Of a DNA stretch of 35,577 nucleotides, positions 3,412 to 12,817 are shown piece by piece. The position numbers and the translations under genes are program-made. Position 1 is the stretch's first letter. Every line of letters starts with the position of its first letter. Under the pieces are notes generated by a model, which saw nothing but the letters and a program-made list of their open reading frames with translations, ran no database searches and was not told the DNA's origin. Source of the DNA: a virus (taxonomy: Duplodnaviria > Heunggongvirae > Uroviricota > Caudoviricetes); the IMG/VR virus record IMGVR_UViG_2778261575_000001. One strand, written 5' to 3'.

Positions 3412-3702
3412 TTAGTGATTCAGGCCGTTGCCGCGTCCGTCGAGAAAAACTTCCACGAGCAAATCACGGGTATAAGTGCGCTCGATGCCGCGATGCAGAT
3501 AAAGCCGTCCGCGTAAATTAGCTGATGCAGTCCAGGTACCATCTTTGTGTTTGACCAGCATTCCTGGCATGACCGCACCGCGATTAACGGTCTGCGTTCC
3601 GTAATGTTGATGAACCATAAAAACTCCTGCCCGTAAGCTGGGCTGCTGAACATATAGAGACTTCTGCGCGTATTCAGGCGGTGGATGGCCGCCGGTTGTC
3701 AT
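3412..3702 (-). CDS. hypothetical early-left protein between gam and OL
   Basis: First in-frame ATG with a GAGG RBS gives 96 aa ([20 protein letters not shown]...). The track ORF extends to a TTG at 3822, adding an Arg-rich N-terminus (see findings). An alternative-frame ORF at 3420..3653 also exists. Confidence 0.3.
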
Positions 3703-3869
3703 AACTAAGCCGCCTCGTTGAAGCGACTGAGGTATGAGGTGTTGAGTTGATTTCAGCTGGTCACACCGACGTTCACGCGTCCGCTTCACCCCTCGCACTT
3801 CCCGGAGCCTGCTGAAATTCAAGCTGCGGATCTAAGCGGTCATCGCAACGGTGAATCAGGTGGTTGCCG

Positions 3870-3970
3870 TATCGTTGTGTTGTTGCGATGAATTTATTTA
3901 AAACTATAGTTGTTTTGTCGTCAACAACAAAAGTTGTTTTATTGGTTTTTTTAGATGTAAATGGTTGTAT
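3870..3970. promoter_or_regulatory. OL/pL-type operator-promoter region (GTTGTT/AACAAC inverted repeats)
   Basis: GTTGTT(3909-3914)-N8-AACAAC(3923-3928)-N4-GTTGTT(3933-3938), plus ATGGTTGT at 3961; the same half-site as the OR palindrome. Lies upstream of the leftward operon. Confidence 0.45.
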
Positions 3971-4065
3971 TTAGGATGGATTTATTTTGTGACTTGCATC
4001 GCATAGCGATAACTGAAGCGAGGTCGTGGTGGTTTTTTGAACGGTTTGTGTGATGAGGGGGAGGG

Positions 4066-4094
4066 GCAAAAGAAAACCCGGCACGGTGGCCGGG
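4066..4094 (-). terminator. intrinsic terminator downstream of the ASCH gene
   Basis: Stem CCCGGC(4077-4082)/GCCGGG(4089-4094) with a 6-nt loop; on the minus strand it is followed by TTTTCTTTT (plus 4068-4076), directly after the ASCH stop at 4099. Confidence 0.55.
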
Positions 4095-4098
4095 ATTC

Positions 4099-4476
4099 TT
4101 ACGCAGGTAGGTAAAGATATGATTGTGGTGGCTTAATATTACTACCTAGAGCAGAGATAGGAATTGGTTCTTTATATCTTTCCACTTCACCAATTTTTAT
4201 TGCGTAGGCCTTTTCTCTACCTGAATAATATGAGTCATAAAATTGCTTAGAAATACCTGCGTGTTTTTCCGTCTTTTTCCAAAGAGATTCCGGTTCGTCA
4301 CTTAGTATTGATTCAATACGGAATTGACCAACAACTTTACCTAATGGCATCGTGGCATAAATAACAACGGTGCTAATTTGCGGATTTTTGAATATACCTT
4401 TACGAAACTCGAACCGCTTTGTTCCGTTCAATATTTTTTCTGCAAACTCAGGCTTAATGGATAATAAAACTTTCAT
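4099..4476 (-). CDS. ASCH-domain (PUA-like) protein
   Basis: 125-aa ORF; N-terminus MKVLLSIKPEFAEKILNGTKRFEFRK matches the ASCH signature (K-x-LL-x-I-x-PE-[FY]...K...E-x-R); A+T-rich codon usage; start lies 23 nt inside the upstream gene. Confidence 0.65.
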   Translation of the reverse strand: MKVLLSIKPEFAEKILNGTKRFEFRKGIFKNPQISTVVIYATMPLGKVVGQFRIESILSDEPESLWKKTEKHAGISKQFYDSYYSGREKAYAIKIGEVERYKEPIPISALGSNIKPPQSYLYLPA

Positions 4477-5527
4477 TTATCTTGCCTAACTCGATGATCT
4501 TTAAGAACTGCTCATTTGTGAGTTTAAAGTGACTCCATCGGAATGCACGCGAACCATTTAGCCCCACATGATCTATTAAAATAGCACGATTGGGTCTCTT
4601 TGGCAAAGACAGATTGTATGTGAATCTTATAATGAAAGGGTATCGACGTTCTTTATAGATTTTTCTGAGTTCATCTTCAGAAAATACGCTAAAACGAATA
4701 CAATAGTCTACAAAACTATCTTCGCTTAAAAATTCAGAAATATTTTTTACGCTCTCAACTACACATAATGTACTGGCTACAGAACGATAGCGAGCTGGCC
4801 CTTTTTTGTCTCCGGTTCTATAGATGACAATGATATCTCCTCTTTTCATTCCCATCACAGAACGCATTCCACATATGTAAATTTTATGAATGCTGTTAGC
4901 ATGGGATATATCTTTGACAATATCTGGTGATTCATTTACAAGTTTTGAATCAGGGAATAGTCTAGTGTGATATTCGGGATAAATCGCCAGTAAATATTTG
5001 TTGGCTCTTGATGTCATTATTCGAGGGTAATCTAATAAAATATCACCATAAGGCTCATGCAAAGACCTCGCATATACAAACTCTTTCCCGTTATGTGTTT
5101 CTTTTTCACCATGAATGTAAAATCCGTACGTTTGGAAAAGTTTTATTAGATGGACGTGTTTGTCGAAAACAGTAACATAAATATCATCAGATTTTGATGA
5201 AAATGCATGGTCAAACGCTTTTTTTAGAAATCGTTGTCCGCGAAGGGTGCCTTTAGATTCAAATTTGAATGTTCCTATCTTTAGATGACGTCCTGGTGGG
5301 AGCGCTGGATTAATGTCATTTGCATCATCATTTTCTTTTAGATACATAAAACCTTCGATTTTATGCTTGTCATCATAGAGCACATAAGCTGATTCTCCTT
5401 CTCTGGCTTTTTTTTCTAACCAAAGAGGAAACTCTTTATAATCTTTTTTTAAAGAGTCAAAAAATGGGTCATTGTGATCAAAATCAGAGAATTTCTCATA
5501 TTTTAAAGTATCCATTAAGTTCTCCAT
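4454..5527 (-). CDS. GNAT-like acyltransferase fused to a PUA-like (ASCH-type) domain, candidate effector of an immunity-region module
   Basis: 357-aa ORF with verified ATG and TAA. N-terminal half has a GNAT-like core (...IYVTVFDKHVHLIKLFQTYGF...); C-terminal half has an ASCH-like start (KYLLAIYPEYHTRLFPDSK) followed by GDIIVIYRTG. Domain calls are by eye. Confidence 0.6.
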   Translation of the reverse strand: MENLMDTLKYEKFSDFDHNDPFFDSLKKDYKEFPLWLEKKAREGESAYVLYDDKHKIEGFMYLKENDDANDINPALPPGRHLKIGTFKFESKGTLRGQRFLKKAFDHAFSSKSDDIYVTVFDKHVHLIKLFQTYGFYIHGEKETHNGKEFVYARSLHEPYGDILLDYPRIMTSRANKYLLAIYPEYHTRLFPDSKLVNESPDIVKDISHANSIHKIYICGMRSVMGMKRGDIIVIYRTGDKKGPARYRSVASTLCVVESVKNISEFLSEDSFVDYCIRFSVFSEDELRKIYKERRYPFIIRFTYNLSLPKRPNRAILIDHVGLNGSRAFRWSHFKLTNEQFLKIIELGKINESFIIH

Positions 5528-5595
5528 TCTAAAATGAATAATTAAGTTGTTTTACTGAATGAGCACAATGCCCGGTTGATAATTTTTAATTGGTA

Positions 5596-6285
5596 CTATC
5601 CATGCTTCCTATACGTCTGCGGCATGCTCCCAATAACTTTCCCGAAGATAAACACCCGGTTCATCTCGTCTTTCTCGATTGGGTCCCACGGTGAGTAGCT
5701 CTTGTTATCAGAGATAACCAGCAGTTTATCCTTCATCATTTGCAGGCGCTTTACATGGGCTGTGTCGTCGTACAGAAACGCATAGATACCATCACCGTCG
5801 AAAGATTTAACCGTGATATCAACGAACAGCAGATCACCAGGTTCAATCGTTCCTGACATGCTGTCACCGCGTACGTTAATGATGCGGATATTTTCTGCCT
5901 TCCTGCCATCGAACATGTGACGAGCATCGTCAAACGAGTACTCAACCGAGCGTAGGACTTCTACAAACTCACGGTTGATGACACCCGGCCCGGCACTCAC
6001 TTCTATATCAAGAACGTCAATCTTAAAGTATTTGGAATGGCTGACAGTTGGTTGTATTGGTTGCACTGTACTGTCTGACATATTTCCAACGCCAGAAGAT
6101 AACCATTCTGCGCGCACACCCAAAGCGTTCGCGATCTCCACGATTTTAGTTGTTTGATTAGCTTTTCCTGTTTCGATTTTCTGAATAGCAGCTTGGCTAA
6201 CCCCGACCAAATCCCCAAGCGCCTTTTGTGTAAGGCCTCGCGCTAATCTGGCTTCTTTAAGTCTTTCTGAGAGTGTTGTTTTCAT
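5596..6285 (-). CDS. cI: cI-like prophage repressor (HTH_XRE + S24 LexA-like peptidase domain)
   Basis: 229-aa ORF with an N-terminal HTH (LTQKALGDLVGVSQAAIQKIETGK) and C-terminal S24 motifs (VRGDSMSGTIEPGDLLFVD ... VKRL); sits between the OL-like and OR-like repeat regions; ATG at 6285 has no SD, suggesting a leaderless mRNA. Confidence 0.85.
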   Translation of the reverse strand: MKTTLSERLKEARLARGLTQKALGDLVGVSQAAIQKIETGKANQTTKIVEIANALGVRAEWLSSGVGNMSDSTVQPIQPTVSHSKYFKIDVLDIEVSAGPGVINREFVEVLRSVEYSFDDARHMFDGRKAENIRIINVRGDSMSGTIEPGDLLFVDITVKSFDGDGIYAFLYDDTAHVKRLQMMKDKLLVISDNKSYSPWDPIEKDEMNRVFIFGKVIGSMPQTYRKHG

Positions 6286-6389
6286 AGTTCAAATGTACAA
6301 CCAAGGTTTTATTCCATCAAACGAAAATGGTTGTTGACTAAAAACAACCATAGTTTTAATCTTGATTCAAATTAACCACGGAGGTTGTT
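6286..6389. promoter_or_regulatory. OR region with divergent pRM/pR candidates
   Basis: Perfect 9-bp inverted repeat ATGGTTGTT-N7-AACAACCAT at 6327-6351. Candidate pR: TTGACT (6333-6338), 16-bp spacer, TTTAAT (6355-6360). Candidate leftward pRM (coordinates on plus strand): TTGATG (6315-6320), 17-bp spacer, TACATT (6292-6297), start at the cI ATG. Confidence 0.5.
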
Positions 6390-6620
6390 ATGAACCCAGC
6401 TATTAAAACAGCGATCAATATCGTTGGTTCACAAAAGAAACTGGGCGCTGCTTGCGAAGTTTCACAGCAGGCCGTCTATAAGTGGCTTCACAACAAAGCA
6501 AAGGTATCCCCTGAACATGTCGGCAGCATTGTTACGGCTACTGGTGGAGTAGTGAAGGCACACCAGATTCGCCCGGATCTTCCGAAGTTGTTTCCACACA
6601 CCGAAAAGAACGCAGCTTAA
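6390..6620 (+). CDS. cro: Cro-like repressor (YdaS-type HTH)
   Basis: 76-aa ORF, GGAGG RBS, first gene rightward of OR; resembles YdaS/Cro-type small HTH proteins (..GSQKKLGAACEVSQQAVYKW..). Confidence 0.7.
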   Translation: MNPAIKTAINIVGSQKKLGAACEVSQQAVYKWLHNKAKVSPEHVGSIVTATGGVVKAHQIRPDLPKLFPHTEKNAA

Positions 6621-6632
6621 ATTTCCATTTCA

Positions 6633-6645
6633 CGCTCTTTAACAA
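6633..6645 (+). promoter_or_regulatory. boxA-like element (nutR candidate)
   Basis: CGCTCTTTAACAA, 13 nt after the cro stop, closely matches the boxA consensus (lambda CGCTCTTA; rrn GCTCTTTAACAA); no boxB hairpin found. Confidence 0.35.
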
Positions 6646-6689
6646 TAAGCAATCAACTTAACAGTCAATTCAAACTAAAGGAGTCAATT

Positions 6690-7229
6690 ATGCAACCACT
6701 TACATACCAACAGACTAGCGGATTTAGCCCGACTGCGGTGATAAATCGTTCTCAAACAAAACAGGTGCCAGGCCACGAAAAAATCCGTGATGCCGTCCGC
6801 GCCTGGTCGGCTGAAGATAATCAGGATGTCGTTGCCACACTCATTGTGAATGAGTATCGGGAGCAGGGCGGCGGCACCATCGATTTCCCTGATGATGTCA
6901 GCCGTGCACGCCAGAAGCTGTTCCGCTTCCTCGATAACAAATTCGATTCTGAAAAATACCGAAATAACGTGCGTGAACTGACCCCGGCAATCCTGGCGGT
7001 ACTACCGCTGGAATATCGCGGTTACCTGGTTGAGCAGGATAGCTTCATGGCTAGGTTGGCTGAAATGGAAAAGGAACTCAGTGAGGCAAAACAGGCTGTC
7101 ATTCTCAACGCACCACGCCACCAGAAACTGAAGGAAATTAGTGAAGGTATTGTGTCGATGTTTCGTGTGGACCCAGATCTGGCTGGTCCATTGATGGCGA
7201 TGGTTACTACCATGCTGGGGGCGATATGA
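6690..7229 (+). CDS. YdaT-family regulator (CII-position protein)
   Basis: 179-aa ORF between cro and O with an AAGGAG RBS; shares the remembered YdaT-like pattern (EY.EQGGG ... PAILAVLPLEYR). Confidence 0.5.
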   Translation: MQPLTYQQTSGFSPTAVINRSQTKQVPGHEKIRDAVRAWSAEDNQDVVATLIVNEYREQGGGTIDFPDDVSRARQKLFRFLDNKFDSEKYRNNVRELTPAILAVLPLEYRGYLVEQDSFMARLAEMEKELSEAKQAVILNAPRHQKLKEISEGIVSMFRVDPDLAGPLMAMVTTMLGAI

Positions 7230-9242: not shown

Positions 9243-9309
9243 TGAAACAGGTGAGTTGAGTTCAAACTGTAGTACAATTCTCTCCAGTTTGAACAGGAAA
9301 GAATATGCT

Positions 9310-9642
9310 ATGAACCCTTATATTTATCTTGGTGGTGCAATACTTGCAGAGGTCATTGGTACAACCTTAATGAAGTTTTCAGAAGGTTTTACACGGTTAT
9401 GGCCATCTGTTGGTACAATTATTTGTTATTGTGCATCATTCTGGTTATTAGCTCAGACGCTGGCTTATATACCTACAGGGATTGCTTATGCTATCTGGTC
9501 AGGAGTCGGTATTGTCCTGATTAGCTTACTATCATGGGGATTTTTCGGCCAACGGTTGGACCTGCCAGCCATTATAGGCATGATGTTGATTTGTGCCGGT
9601 GTGTTGGTTATTAATTTATTGTCACGAAGCACACCACATTAA
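9310..9642 (+). CDS. emrE: small multidrug resistance efflux transporter EmrE
   Basis: 110 aa from the ATG at 9310 (MNPYIYLGGAILAEVIGTTLMKFSEGFTRLWPSVGTII...) matches E. coli EmrE, a known DLP12 prophage gene; RBS AGGAAAG upstream. Confidence 0.95.
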   Translation: MNPYIYLGGAILAEVIGTTLMKFSEGFTRLWPSVGTIICYCASFWLLAQTLAYIPTGIAYAIWSGVGIVLISLLSWGFFGQRLDLPAIIGMMLICAGVLVINLLSRSTPH

Positions 9643-9897
9643 AAATAATTTATTTTTAAACGACTAAAATATTGAGGTTCGTATATTTGTATGGGCCTCG
9701 TTTTATGCTTTTTGTTAATGTCTTTAGTTTTTATTCATTCTTTTGATCTTTCAAGATTATGGTGTAAGAAAATTGCAATACGATTATTGTTGTATATTCA
9801 AGATAATGTGACCTTAATTGTCTTTTTAAATAAAAATTAAACAAAAATCATATCTCACCACTAAGGTTTATAAAAGCATACTTTAGCAGGTGTCACC

Positions 9898-11424
9898 ATG
9901 AAAAAAGCCATAGCATATATGCGATTTTCATCACCAGGTCAGATGTCTGGTGATTCATTAAACCGCCAGAGAAGGCTTATTACTGAATGGCTAAAGGTAA
10001 ATAGTGATTATTACCTTGATACCGTAACGTATGAAGATTTGGGGTTAAGCGCATTCAATGGAAAGCATGCACAATCAGGAGCTTTTTCGGAATTTTTAGA
10101 TGCTATAGAACATGGTTACATATTGCCAGGGACTACATTGTTAGTTGAAAGTCTGGACAGACTTTCAAGAGAAAAAGTCGGTGAAGCGATTGAGCGTCTG
10201 AAATTGATTTTGAATCACGGTATTGATGTTATAACTCTTTGCGATAATACAGTCTATAATATAGACTCATTGAATGAGCCATATTCATTAATAAAAGCCA
10301 TACTTATAGCACAAAGGGCAAATGAAGAAAGCGAGATAAAGTCAAGTCGGGTTAAATTATCATGGAAGAAAAAACGGCAGGATGCACTGGAATCAGGCAC
10401 GATTATGACGGCGTCTTGTCCGAGATGGCTCTCATTGGATGACAAAAGAACAGCTTTTATTCCACACCCCGACAGGGTGAAAACGATTGAGCTAATTTTT
10501 AAACTCAGGATGGAAAGGCGATCATTGAATGCAATAGCTAAGTATTTAAATGATCATGCTGTAAAAAATTTTTCAGGAAAAGAAAGTGCATGGGGGCCTT
10601 CTGTAATTGAAAAATTATTAGCGAATAAAGCTCTGATAGGTATATGCGTACCTTCATATCGTGCAAGAGGGAAAGGGATAAGTGAAATCGCTGGCTATTA
10701 TCCCAGAGTCATATCAGATGATTTGTTTTACGCTGTACAGGAAATTCGGTTGGCACCTTTTGGTATTAGCAATAGTAGCAAGAATCCTATGCTAATAAAT
10801 CTACTTCGAACAGTTATGAAGTGTGAGGCTTGTGGTAATACCATGATTGTTCATGCGGTATCTGGACGTTTGCATGGCTATTATGTTTGTCCGATGAGAA
10901 GATTACATCGATGTGACAGGCCATCAATAAAAAGAGATTTGGTTGATTATAATATCATTAATGAATTGCTTTTTAATTGTAGCAAAATTCAACCAGTTGA
11001 AAACAAGAAAGATGCTAATGAAACTTTAGAGTTAAAAATTATTGAGCTTCAGATGAAAATTAATAATTTAATCGTTGCATTGTCTGTCGCGCCTGAAGTT
11101 ACCGCTATAGCAGAGAAAATAAGACTATTAGATAAGGAATTACGAAGGGCTTCGGTATCATTAAAAACTTTGAAGAGTAAAGGGGTGAGTTCACTTGGTG
11201 ATTTTCATGCTATTGATTTAACCAGTAAAAATGGGCGAGAGCTATGTCGTACACTTGCCTATAAAATATTCGAAAAAATTATAATTAATACAGATAATAA
11301 AACCTGTGATATCTATTTTATGAATGGCATTGTTTTTAAACACTATCCTTTAATGAAAGTAATATCCGCCCAGCAGGCGATAAGTACTCTTAAATATATG
11401 GTTGATGGTGAGATTTATTTTTGA
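9898..11424 (+). CDS. ybcK: large serine recombinase (YbcK-like)
   Basis: 508-aa ORF with a resolvase-type N-terminal catalytic domain (AIAYMRFSSPGQ...SLNRQ); size and neighbourhood (after emrE) match DLP12 ybcK; A+T-rich. Confidence 0.8.
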   Translation: MKKAIAYMRFSSPGQMSGDSLNRQRRLITEWLKVNSDYYLDTVTYEDLGLSAFNGKHAQSGAFSEFLDAIEHGYILPGTTLLVESLDRLSREKVGEAIERLKLILNHGIDVITLCDNTVYNIDSLNEPYSLIKAILIAQRANEESEIKSSRVKLSWKKKRQDALESGTIMTASCPRWLSLDDKRTAFIPHPDRVKTIELIFKLRMERRSLNAIAKYLNDHAVKNFSGKESAWGPSVIEKLLANKALIGICVPSYRARGKGISEIAGYYPRVISDDLFYAVQEIRLAPFGISNSSKNPMLINLLRTVMKCEACGNTMIVHAVSGRLHGYYVCPMRRLHRCDRPSIKRDLVDYNIINELLFNCSKIQPVENKKDANETLELKIIELQMKINNLIVALSVAPEVTAIAEKIRLLDKELRRASVSLKTLKSKGVSSLGDFHAIDLTSKNGRELCRTLAYKIFEKIIINTDNKTCDIYFMNGIVFKHYPLMKVISAQQAISTLKYMVDGEIYF

Positions 11425-11748
11425 GTAATAATCACTTTTTCAACCGTGCTATGGTATGAAAGTAAAGTAACTAATATGATATTAACTATCTTGAACGAAG
11501 CGCCCTGAGCTATAGTTTTACTATAGGCACTGTCACTGGATGTTGGCATTCTTGCTCTAGTAGCTCAACAATACCCAATCACAAAACAATTCACTGATAA
11601 CAAACTTTGTGCACGTGCTTGGTTATGGCGAACAGGTGATGTTAACCTCTTGCCAGAATGCCACTCCACTTCATTAAGTATCTGAGCACCGAGAGGCTGG
11701 TCACGCCCCCATTAAAAATAATTTCTTTTGAATCGAGTGAAATAGGTT

Positions 11749-11775
11749 AGCCCGCATAAGTGCGGGCTGCTTTTT
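11749..11775. terminator. hairpin terminator between the ybcK block and the esterase gene, possibly bidirectional
   Basis: Stem AGCCCGCA(11749-11756)/TGCGGGCT(11761-11768), loop TAAG, then TTTTT (11771-11775) on the plus strand; overlaps the stop of the minus-strand esterase gene. Confidence 0.5.
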
Positions 11776-12817
11776 ACAGGTCAGCGTTTGTTTTTTGTTG
11801 TTGGGTAGCGGTTTTTATGGGGGTTCCCAGGTTTTTAGTAAACCACTCAACAACTCTGTTTATAATAATTGGCTGATACCATGTATTATCGCCATGCTCG
11901 GCCCCTTCTACCAGCACGTACTCAGCGTTATCACCGTTCTTCTTCAACATCCTGAATAGTTTGGCGCTTTGCTCAGGTGAAACCAGAGTGTCTTTGCTAC
12001 CATGCATAATAAGAAATGGGGGTTTTACTCCTTTCATATGTCCGATTGGACTGGCGTTTAGCGCTTTTTCTTTTGACGCTGTGATGGGGGCTCCCGCAAA
12101 ATTTCTGAATGCAGGGCCATTGATCATTAAGGCTTCGGTTACGGCAGGAGAGCGATGAACCTCCTGCACTGATTCAGGGAACCCCTCGCCAATATTCAAC
12201 AAGTCAGAAATCCCATAAAGTGTGGCAACTGCCTGAACATCTGAGGATTGCTGAAGAAAGTCACCTTTATCAAAGGTTTTGTCACCATTTGTAGTTCCCA
12301 TCATCTGGGCAAGCCATCCACCGGCAGAGTCACCCAGAACTCCGATTCTTTGAGGATCAATCCCATAATTGCTGGCATGCTCTCTCAGGTAACGTATTGC
12401 AGCTTTTCCATCCTCAACTGGTGCTGGAAATGTATCAGGAATTGTTCTGTATTCTACAGCGGCCACAACAAAACCAGCTTCTGCCAGAGCCATTCTCATT
12501 TCAATAAATTTGTCATGTTCAGAAGACATGAATCCGCCGCCGGGATAATAAATAATGGCTGGTTTTAAATCATTTGTTCGCGGGACAAGAACTGACATGT
12601 GAAGCTGTCTGACAGAACGAGTTCCTTTTATCTGGGAATAAACAACATCACCAATGAGATCGACCTGGTTTCTGGTCGGTGAAACACTAATGATATCTGC
12701 ACCCGGGGTGTAACCAGGAAGATTAGTCTGGACAGGTGTTGCACAACTCCCGACCGACATGGCCATTGACATACCATACAATAGTGTTGCAGATGATAAT
12801 ATCTTGTTAATTTTCAT
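11774..12817 (-). CDS. secreted or lipoprotein alpha/beta-hydrolase (family IV esterase/lipase-like)
   Basis: 347-aa ORF with an N-terminal signal peptide and possible lipobox (MSVGSC), an HGGG-type oxyanion motif (YYPGGGF), a GDSAGG nucleophile elbow and a C-terminal His (GAEHGD). Confidence 0.7.
   Translation of the reverse strand: MKINKILSSATLLYGMSMAMSVGSCATPVQTNLPGYTPGADIISVSPTRNQVDLIGDVVYSQIKGTRSVRQLHMSVLVPRTNDLKPAIIYYPGGGFMSSEHDKFIEMRMALAEAGFVVAAVEYRTIPDTFPAPVEDGKAAIRYLREHASNYGIDPQRIGVLGDSAGGWLAQMMGTTNGDKTFDKGDFLQQSSDVQAVATLYGISDLLNIGEGFPESVQEVHRSPAVTEALMINGPAFRNFAGAPITASKEKALNASPIGHMKGVKPPFLIMHGSKDTLVSPEQSAKLFRMLKKNGDNAEYVLVEGAEHGDNTWYQPIIINRVVEWFTKNLGTPIKTATQQQKTNADL

Follow-up and report, generated by a model that had tools for sequence, protein, structure and literature searches.

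GevT and GevA of a lambdoid coliphage: a GNAT/PUA-like protein and its overlapping ASCH partner as a proposed toxin-antitoxin-type module acting on RNA

The IMG/VR virus record IMGVR_UViG_2778261575_000001, a lambdoid coliphage sequence of 35,577 nucleotides (referred to below as the window), carries two overlapping minus-strand genes, gevT and gevA, directly downstream of its cI-type repressor gene. GevT combines a divergent GNAT-fold domain and a C-terminal PUA-like barrel in a single polypeptide, while GevA is a small ASCH-domain protein that retains the catalytic motif of its family. The interpretation that we favour, although by no wide measure of confidence, is that gevT and gevA form a toxin-antitoxin-type module in which GevT would acylate RNA, GevA would remove or otherwise counteract the mark, and infection would upset the balance between the two proteins.

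Judged by sequence comparison, the gene pair is a known system, in that GevT/GevA, the PADLOC system PDC-M11 and the 'GNAT-EVE + ASCH' operons are one and the same. In a PADLOC search, GevT matches PDC-M11A over residues 6–356 (2.1e-133) and GevA matches PDC-M11B over residues 1–123 (Table 1). The PDC systems of PADLOC are candidates chosen by genomic association and are not validated defences. The one accessible paper that mentions PDC-M11 records no more than that an O157:H7 strain carries it. Escherichia phage IdasGreatGrand (PP925829.1) and phage PhiR47_2 (PV340567.1) match the stretch from 4000 to 6700 (2.7 kb) at 100% and 99.9% identity, respectively. Both genes are left as unnamed hypothetical proteins in the former record, whereas in the latter gevT is annotated 'GevT toxin' and gevA 'GevA antitoxin'. 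The gene order of PhiR47_2 is that of the window (bet-gam-kil, gevA-gevT-cI, cro-cII-O-P), with 99.9–100% DNA identity from gevA through cII. Our guess is that the names GevT and GevA originate with Brenes & Laub 2025.

The architecture has also been described by comparative genomics. Bell, Wolf & Koonin (2020; PMC7641849) reported that EVE domains joined to GNAT domains form a separate cluster, with an ASCH gene almost always adjacent, noted that the PIN-less GNAT-EVE form is common in beta- and gammaproteobacterial prophages, and predicted a toxin-antitoxin system, of which none had been experimentally characterised as of 2020; an earlier description and the proposal of DNA-base acetylation are attributed there to Iyer et al. 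2013. The window locus shares with these (PIN)-GNAT-EVE + ASCH operons the GNAT domain, the C-terminal EVE-type PUA domain, the adjacent ASCH gene and the PIN-less prophage form. It has neither a PIN domain nor an AAA_17 ATPase gene, whereas a Vibrio relative does have the AAA_17 gene. Consequently, the pair is not new as a discovery, since it has a named deposit (PV340567.1), a listing as a PADLOC candidate and a description in print since at least 2020. An initial annotation of the window, made by eye from the sequence, had identified both domains of GevT correctly and had called their fusion unusual; the domain assignments stand, but an architecture found in more than 1,400 clusters at 50% identity is not unusual. 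The further suggestion that the protein is an effector acylating tRNA or another nucleic acid is plausible, and it accords with the published predictions and with the depositor's 'toxin' label.

Several lines of evidence define the two genes. The ORF listing gives an ATG-initiated open reading frame (ORF) of 357 amino acids on the minus strand (4454..5527), and its translation contains all of the peptides quoted in the initial annotation (KIGTFKFESKGTLRGQRFLKKAFDHAF, IYVTVFDKHVHLIKLFQTYGFYIHG, KYLLAIYPEYHTRLFPDSK and GDIIVIYRTG). Homologues of GevT number 1,631 clusters at 90% identity (E ≤ 1e-5) and 1,425 representatives at 50% identity (E ≤ 1e-3), 869 of the latter at E ≤ 1e-10, and on this basis the ORF is judged to be real and not a chance reading frame. 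The true coding sequence is probably the shorter version given in Table 1, because nearly all homologues are 353 amino acids long with a first residue equivalent to Met5 of the longer ORF, and because a GGAG sequence at 5522–5525 lies 6 nt upstream of the ATG at 5515.

A further feature of the gene pair is the overlap between the end of gevT and the start of gevA. Read in one frame, the overlapping bases, A-ATG-AAA-GTT-TTA-TTA-TCN-ATT-AA, give the GevT tail NESFII[NH]*; read in a different frame, they give the GevA head MKVLLSIK. This exact 23-nt overlap, with near-identical bases, is present in 20/20 loci (4454–4476 of the window together with loci L002–L005, L007–L019, L022 and L024), which are drawn from Proteobacteria, Firmicutes, Verrucomicrobia and an archaeal virus and include loci from Legionella, Lactobacillus and Methanothermobacter virus psiM100. 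Conservation of this degree is an argument for obligatory coupling of GevA synthesis to that of GevT. No statement of the overlap was found in the literature text that could be read, and the overlap offers a concrete handle on coupled expression.

Table 1. Coordinates of the gevT-gevA genes, their domains and the flanking elements in the window
Feature	Coordinates	Strand	Remarks
gevT coding sequence	4454..5515; longest ORF to 5527 (357 aa)	-	Probable start Met5, 353 aa
GNAT-fold acyltransferase domain of GevT, residues ~8-160	5048..5506	-	
PUA-like (EVE / ZmASCH-like) beta-barrel of GevT, residues ~175-357	4457..5005	-	No ASCH catalytic octapeptide
gevT/gevA out-of-frame overlap, 23 nt	4454..4476	-	GevT tail NESFIIH* and GevA head MKVLLSIK from the same bases
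gevA coding sequence	4099..4476	-	125 aa, starts MKVLLSIKPEFAEKILNGTK; Pfam ASCH E 2.5e-8; PDC-M11B 6.8e-52
Intrinsic-terminator-like hairpin	4077..4094	-	CCCGGCCACCGTGCCGGG then TTTTCTTTTG, just past gevA stop; G+C-rich, T-run
cI-type repressor gene	5596..6285	-	HTH_3 5.5e-13 and Peptidase_S24 1.2e-18; annotated cI in PV340567.1; directly upstream of gevT
Right operator palindrome	6327..6351	.	ATGGTTGTTgactaaaAACAACCAT; between cI and cro; half-site pattern copy 6330-6348
Candidate left operator	3909..3928	.	GTTGTTttgtcgtcAACAAC; second pattern copy, far side of gevA

The N-terminal domain of GevT has been assigned from its predicted structure and from profile comparison, as a Pfam search with the 357-residue protein returned zero families at E ≤ 1, the GNAT and EVE models included. 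An AlphaFold2 model built with 34 homologues has a mean predicted local distance difference test (pLDDT) score of 89.2 and a predicted template modelling (pTM) score of 0.86, and the GevT family profile matches the GNAT enzyme PaiA (1tiq) by sequence with an E-value of 2.3e-5. Together the model and the profile match bear out the GNAT fold that had been proposed for this half of the protein. The motifs that had been recognised by eye coincide with the profile alignment to PaiA: 'LRGQR' falls on the acetyl-CoA pyrophosphate turn, with G97 of GevT paired with the second Gly of the PaiA Q-x-x-G-x-G turn, and 'HLIKLFQTYGF' pairs with PaiA 'NAIAFYKKMGF', the canonical N..A..LY...GF helix. GevT is weakly similar to the polyamine acetyltransferases PaiA and SpeG. 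The helices on the substrate side of the domain are strongly conserved, with invariant residues F13, D20, F22, F23, K27, Y30, W36 and K40, and conservation of this face from bacteria to an archaeal virus points to a universal target molecule.

The C-terminal half of GevT was also modelled alone (pLDDT 83), and its structural matches in the PDB are exclusively PUA-like barrels, confirming the PUA-like domain of the initial annotation. The highest score was obtained with ZmASCH (13.0), slightly ahead of the canonical EVE proteins 2gbs, 1wmm, 2ar1 and THYN1 (10.9–11.4), and these were followed by VcaM4I (9.4), YTH domains (8.4–9.2) and YqfB and the ASCH domain of TRIP4 (~7.5). According to this model, the barrel is best described as EVE/ZmASCH-like. 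A comparison of the profile of this domain with PDB sequences returned only a spurious match to OCRL. The ASCH octapeptide was not found in the barrel, where the aligned stretch reads DSKLVNES and the Lys is not conserved among homologues. Because this catalytic octapeptide is missing, the barrel looks like a reader, not an enzyme. A likeness had been noticed between the start of this domain and the N-terminus of the neighbouring ASCH protein (KYLLAIYPEY and KVLLSIKPEF); it is real but short, extending over 29 columns in an hhalign comparison (E 2.9e-4, probability 41%). Since hhalign aligned these first 29 columns only, the GevT barrel and GevA were rejected as demonstrable sequence paralogues, and their kinship rests on the fold.

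GevA differs from the GevT barrel in having an intact ASCH motif. GevA is homologous to ZmASCH (5gus/5guq; E 8e-16), and its octapeptide, G18-x-K20-x-x-E23-x-R25, shows no variation among 60 homologues with identities as low as 58%. The side chains Y40 and S119, equivalent to Y47 and S128 in ZmASCH, are likewise invariant in these homologues, while Lys53 of ZmASCH aligns with Gly46 of GevA. The significance of the octapeptide comes from a 2026 preprint, which reports that 19 ASCH proteins, including ZmASCH, strip N4-acetylcytidine (ac4C) from Escherichia coli tRNA in vitro and that the Lys and Glu of the octapeptide are catalytic and essential in TthASCH, EOLA1 and TRIP4. GevA has this GKER octapeptide. 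The ac4C deacetylases of the family and ZmASCH (YqfB, TthASCH, EOLA1 and ZMO0922) are encoded by stand-alone housekeeping genes, whereas gevA is paired with gevT. The possibility that ZmASCH itself comes from a Gev-type operon was considered and rejected, as its upstream neighbour, a protein of 375 amino acids, is unlike GevT by both BLASTP and hhalign. In the Zymomonas mobilis locus (L027, 3825–5447), the gene for the crystallised protein, ZMO0922, lies 49 nt downstream of the gene for this 375-residue protein, which has no Pfam match and may be a different ASCH partner protein.

The gev pair is widespread in prophage cargo slots and defence islands. The window allele, with both genes, is found in 275 of 5,426 complete E. 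coli genomes, O157:H7 included. In a Rac-like prophage of Salmonella the pair directly follows the repressor gene, in a P2/186-like prophage of Dickeya it is downstream of the repressor, and in one E. coli locus it is beside an integrase gene. In SopEPhi the pair is flanked by the gpA-like/DinI-like genes on one side and by the portal gene on the other, a site that we take to be the tin/old hotspot of P2. Prophage Lj965 of Lactobacillus also carries the pair. A three-gene variant in Vibrio cholerae (loci L019–L021, 5001–6953) consists of a GevT homologue, an ASCH protein of 134 amino acids and an AAA_17/AAA_18 P-loop protein, and it is flanked by type I-F Csy genes together with a SNIPE/T5orf172 protein and by a 1,269-residue SIR2_2 protein. 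In the Methanothermobacter virus psiM100 (locus L004, 3036–4881), ORFD (492 amino acids, with an N-terminal extension) is a relative of GevT, and ORF5, which starts MKVLLSVKPK, overlaps ORFD by 23 nt. Based on these sequences, ORFD and ORF5 appear to be a pair of the Gev type, located at the right-hand edge of the 'IFa' insert, and ORFD extends beyond the annotated end of this insert.

Functional evidence of an indirect kind comes from a Dickeya prophage. A transposon-sequencing (Tn-seq) study of Dickeya dadantii 3937 (2026) found the prophage gene Dda3937_01763, annotated as ASCH domain-containing, to be essential, along with the C1 repressor gene Dda3937_01765. Among the proteins of strain 3937, a homologue of GevT (ADM97072) and an ASCH protein (ADM97071) have consecutive accessions, and in a sister Dickeya genome the order is CI, a gene for a protein of 358 amino acids, GevT, ASCH and integrase. 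If Dda3937_01763 is the partner of GevT, its essentiality would be a classic signature of an antitoxin.

The position of gevTA in the window suggests when the pair is expressed. On the minus strand the order is cI, gevT, gevA and terminator; the spacer between cI and gevT is 68 nt long, and a scan of this spacer revealed no terminator-like site. Only two copies of GTTGTT-N6-9-AACAAC are present in the 35.6-kb window, where 0.01 copies are expected. A strict palindrome search detected the right operator only, and the left-hand copy was obtained with the looser half-site pattern. The genes gevTA are inside the immunity region, between the two operator copies, and their G+C content is 0.38–0.40 compared with ~0.50 nearby. 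As they are downstream of cI, co-oriented with it and within the immunity region, gevTA should be transcribed together with the repressor gene in lysogens. This position resembles that of rexAB in phage lambda, which are likewise two genes directly after cI, co-oriented, in the immunity region and followed by a terminator before the left operator. Searches with PADLOC, Pfam and PHROG for Rex homology returned only PDC-M11, ASCH and families of unknown function, the presence of Rex models in these libraries being unconfirmed. The idea that gevTA are homologues of RexAB was rejected, given the lack of a sequence relationship and the fact that PADLOC matches only PDC-M11. In sister phages with the same flanks the slot contains other genes, namely a HipA toxin and a 'HipD antitoxin' downstream of cI in PhiR5_1 (locus L025, 1628–3201) and three unnamed, unrelated genes in PhiR70_1 (locus L026, 1608–3130). 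The slot downstream of cI is a swap-in hotspot for lysogen-expressed cargo.

The mechanism proposed for the module begins with GevT, in which the divergent GNAT domain would be the effector and the non-catalytic PUA-like barrel would most likely dock on nucleic acid. First, GevT would transfer an acetyl or other acyl group to RNA, most likely tRNA, and translation would stop; the acceptor could be a base amine such as cytidine N4 or, in charged tRNA, the amino group of the attached amino acid. An RNA or tRNA target is favoured for two reasons, the activity of characterised GevA relatives on such molecules and the strong conservation of the substrate side of the GNAT domain. Next, GevA would counteract GevT in uninfected cells, its translation locked to that of GevT through the universally conserved overlap. 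The likeliest route would be hydrolysis of the acyl mark, and an eraser role is favoured because the catalytic Lys, Glu and Arg of GevA are invariant. Finally, phage infection would tip the balance between GevT and GevA, and the infected cell would be arrested. An analogy, with no homology, is offered by DarT/DarG, in which the toxin gene also comes first and the gene for an enzymatic eraser antitoxin second. DarT, a toxin that modifies nucleic acid, ADP-ribosylates DNA, and its action is reversed by a hydrolase, the macrodomain protein DarG.

A number of observations weigh against this mechanism. The GNAT core of GevT is degenerate: the turn, which usually reads Q/R-x-x-G-x-G/A, is K-G-T-L-R-G, and in the PaiA alignment the position of the usual catalytic Tyr is occupied by Phe131, with an invariant Tyr134 one helical turn later. 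Due to this atypical turn, the Phe at the Tyr position and the lack of a Pfam GNAT match, the use of acetyl-CoA by GevT is not assured. The fold search that identified the barrel is unable to separate RNA, DNA and free-nucleotide ligands. Binding of nucleic acids and cleavage of single-stranded RNA have been reported for ZmASCH, whose first-reported role is that of a single-stranded RNA nuclease. In the 2026 preprint, ZmASCH in E. coli gave no significant decrease in ac4C and was inactive on the free nucleoside. Moreover, ZmASCH is the closest characterised relative of GevA and is not encoded beside a GevT homologue. The case for toxicity and defence draws on a depositor's label, a catalogue of candidates and indirect Tn-seq data, and within the last of these the identification of Dda3937_01763 as the GevT partner is putative, being made by consecutive accessions and product names and not by locus tag. 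A literature search for GevT, GevA, GevTA and GNAT-EVE returned no accessible paper with experiments on the pair; a paper on Vibrio VpaChn25_0734 proved to be irrelevant to it.

The main rival to an eraser GevA is neutralisation by binding or competition, an account to which we give serious weight while considering it distinctly less probable than the favoured one. According to this proposal the module is the same toxin-antitoxin or defence module, the toxic reaction is N-acetylation of aminoacyl-tRNA as catalysed by TacT, AtaT and ItaT, and GevA acts non-catalytically, either by competing for the same nucleic-acid site or by binding GevT in the manner of a classical type II antitoxin. The PUA folds of GevA and of the GevT barrel are both of the ZmASCH-like type, their first strand and helix are recognisably alike in sequence, and strict translational coupling suits a stoichiometric inhibitor; in addition, alphaproteobacterial helix-turn-helix (HTH)-ASCH fusions resemble autoregulating type II antitoxins (PMC7641849). 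However, a pure binder would not need the invariant Lys/Glu/Arg octapeptide of GevA, and the monomeric state of ZmASCH in solution leaves the pairing of ASCH barrels without a precedent. The module also has no partner of the DUF1778/ribbon-helix-helix (RHH) type. In TacT, AtaT, ItaT and KacT systems the antitoxin is a DUF1778/RHH protein encoded upstream of the toxin, whereas the partner of GevT is an ASCH protein encoded downstream and the upstream gene is cI. GevT further differs from these toxins in having an additional PUA-like domain, no Pfam GNAT match and a Phe in place of the usual catalytic Tyr. Membership of GevT in the TacT/AtaT family was rejected on the grounds that the DUF1778/RHH partner, the canonical acetyl-CoA turn and the catalytic Tyr are all lacking. 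The comparison with these toxins in the initial annotation therefore survives as an analogy at the level of the fold, but not beyond it, given the lack of a Pfam GNAT match at E ≤ 1 and the downstream ASCH partner.

A role in DNA modification and a role outside defence are both less likely than the RNA model. In the former, which we regard as improbable, GevT would acetylate a DNA base, as Iyer et al. 2013 originally proposed according to PMC7641849, the EVE-like domain would read the modified base, and GevA would read or erase the mark; the modified base would belong to the DNA of an incoming phage or to that of the host, with discrimination of self from non-self as in restriction-modification. 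We know of no documented enzymatic acetylation of DNA bases by a GNAT enzyme, and RNA or tRNA is the substrate of those GevA relatives that have been characterised biochemically. The location of the module among DNA-targeting defences in Vibrio is consistent with a DNA target, as are the association of PIN-GNAT-EVE relatives with type I restriction-modification systems and the fusion of an ASCH domain to HsdS in Methanohalophilus (PMC7641849), but the prophage-borne GNAT-EVE form is specifically unlinked to restriction-modification systems (PMC7641849). The least probable account, by a little, is that the pair is neither toxin nor defence but a counter-defence or lysogenic-conversion enzyme, for example one that acetylates a host factor, small molecule or antibiotic, or simply an addiction cassette serving to stabilise the prophage: GNAT-EVE proteins have been speculated to shield phages from host restriction (PMC7641849), NCBI names the family of GevT homologues simply 'N-acetyltransferase', PaiA and SpeG are weakly similar, and an essential ASCH gene fits addiction as well as defence, but the repressor-operon position means expression in lysogens and not in lytic growth, the pair recurs in known defence hotspots and islands, and an enzyme that acetylates small molecules has no need of a domain for reading nucleic acids or of an ASCH partner to which it is obligatorily coupled.

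Several further features were noted elsewhere in the window. The gene in the cII position (6690–7229, plus strand), which is annotated cII in PhiR47_2, matches Pfam YdaT_toxin (9.5e-30) and not Phage_CII. No recognisable N antiterminator gene is present in the 3412–4098 interval, between the candidate left operator region (~3909–3928) and kil/gam/bet, and the 'Kil' ORF (3412–3822) has no Pfam match. The nin region contains a cargo block of low G+C content (0.37–0.39) after ren, at 9256–12817, which encodes an SMR-family transporter (9256–9642, plus strand), a large serine recombinase of 508 amino acids with Resolvase, Recombinase and Zn_ribbon_recom domains (9898–11424, plus strand), and a BD-FAE/alpha-beta-hydrolase of 347 amino acids with a lipoprotein-like N-terminus (11774–12817, minus strand). 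The proteins of this block have no PADLOC match.

A more specific form of the favoured RNA-acylation model can be put forward tentatively, namely that GevT and GevA are the first toxin-antitoxin pair built as a writer and an eraser of RNA acetylation. This proposal is more doubtful than the favoured model and is more likely wrong than right. A reader-guided GNAT would install a toxic N-acetyl group on tRNA, either ac4C-like or on the aminoacyl group, and an ASCH amidohydrolase would continuously remove it, with the 23-nt overlap fixing the ratio of writer to eraser. Because the GNAT is paired with an ASCH protein in which the catalytic Lys and Glu are retained, a sharp and inexpensive test of this idea is possible. 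The pair matters for its prevalence among E. coli genomes and for its relatives across bacteria and archaeal viruses. If the proposal is true, the ASCH family would gain a natural cognate 'writer', and reversible RNA acetylation would join the chemistries of phage defence.

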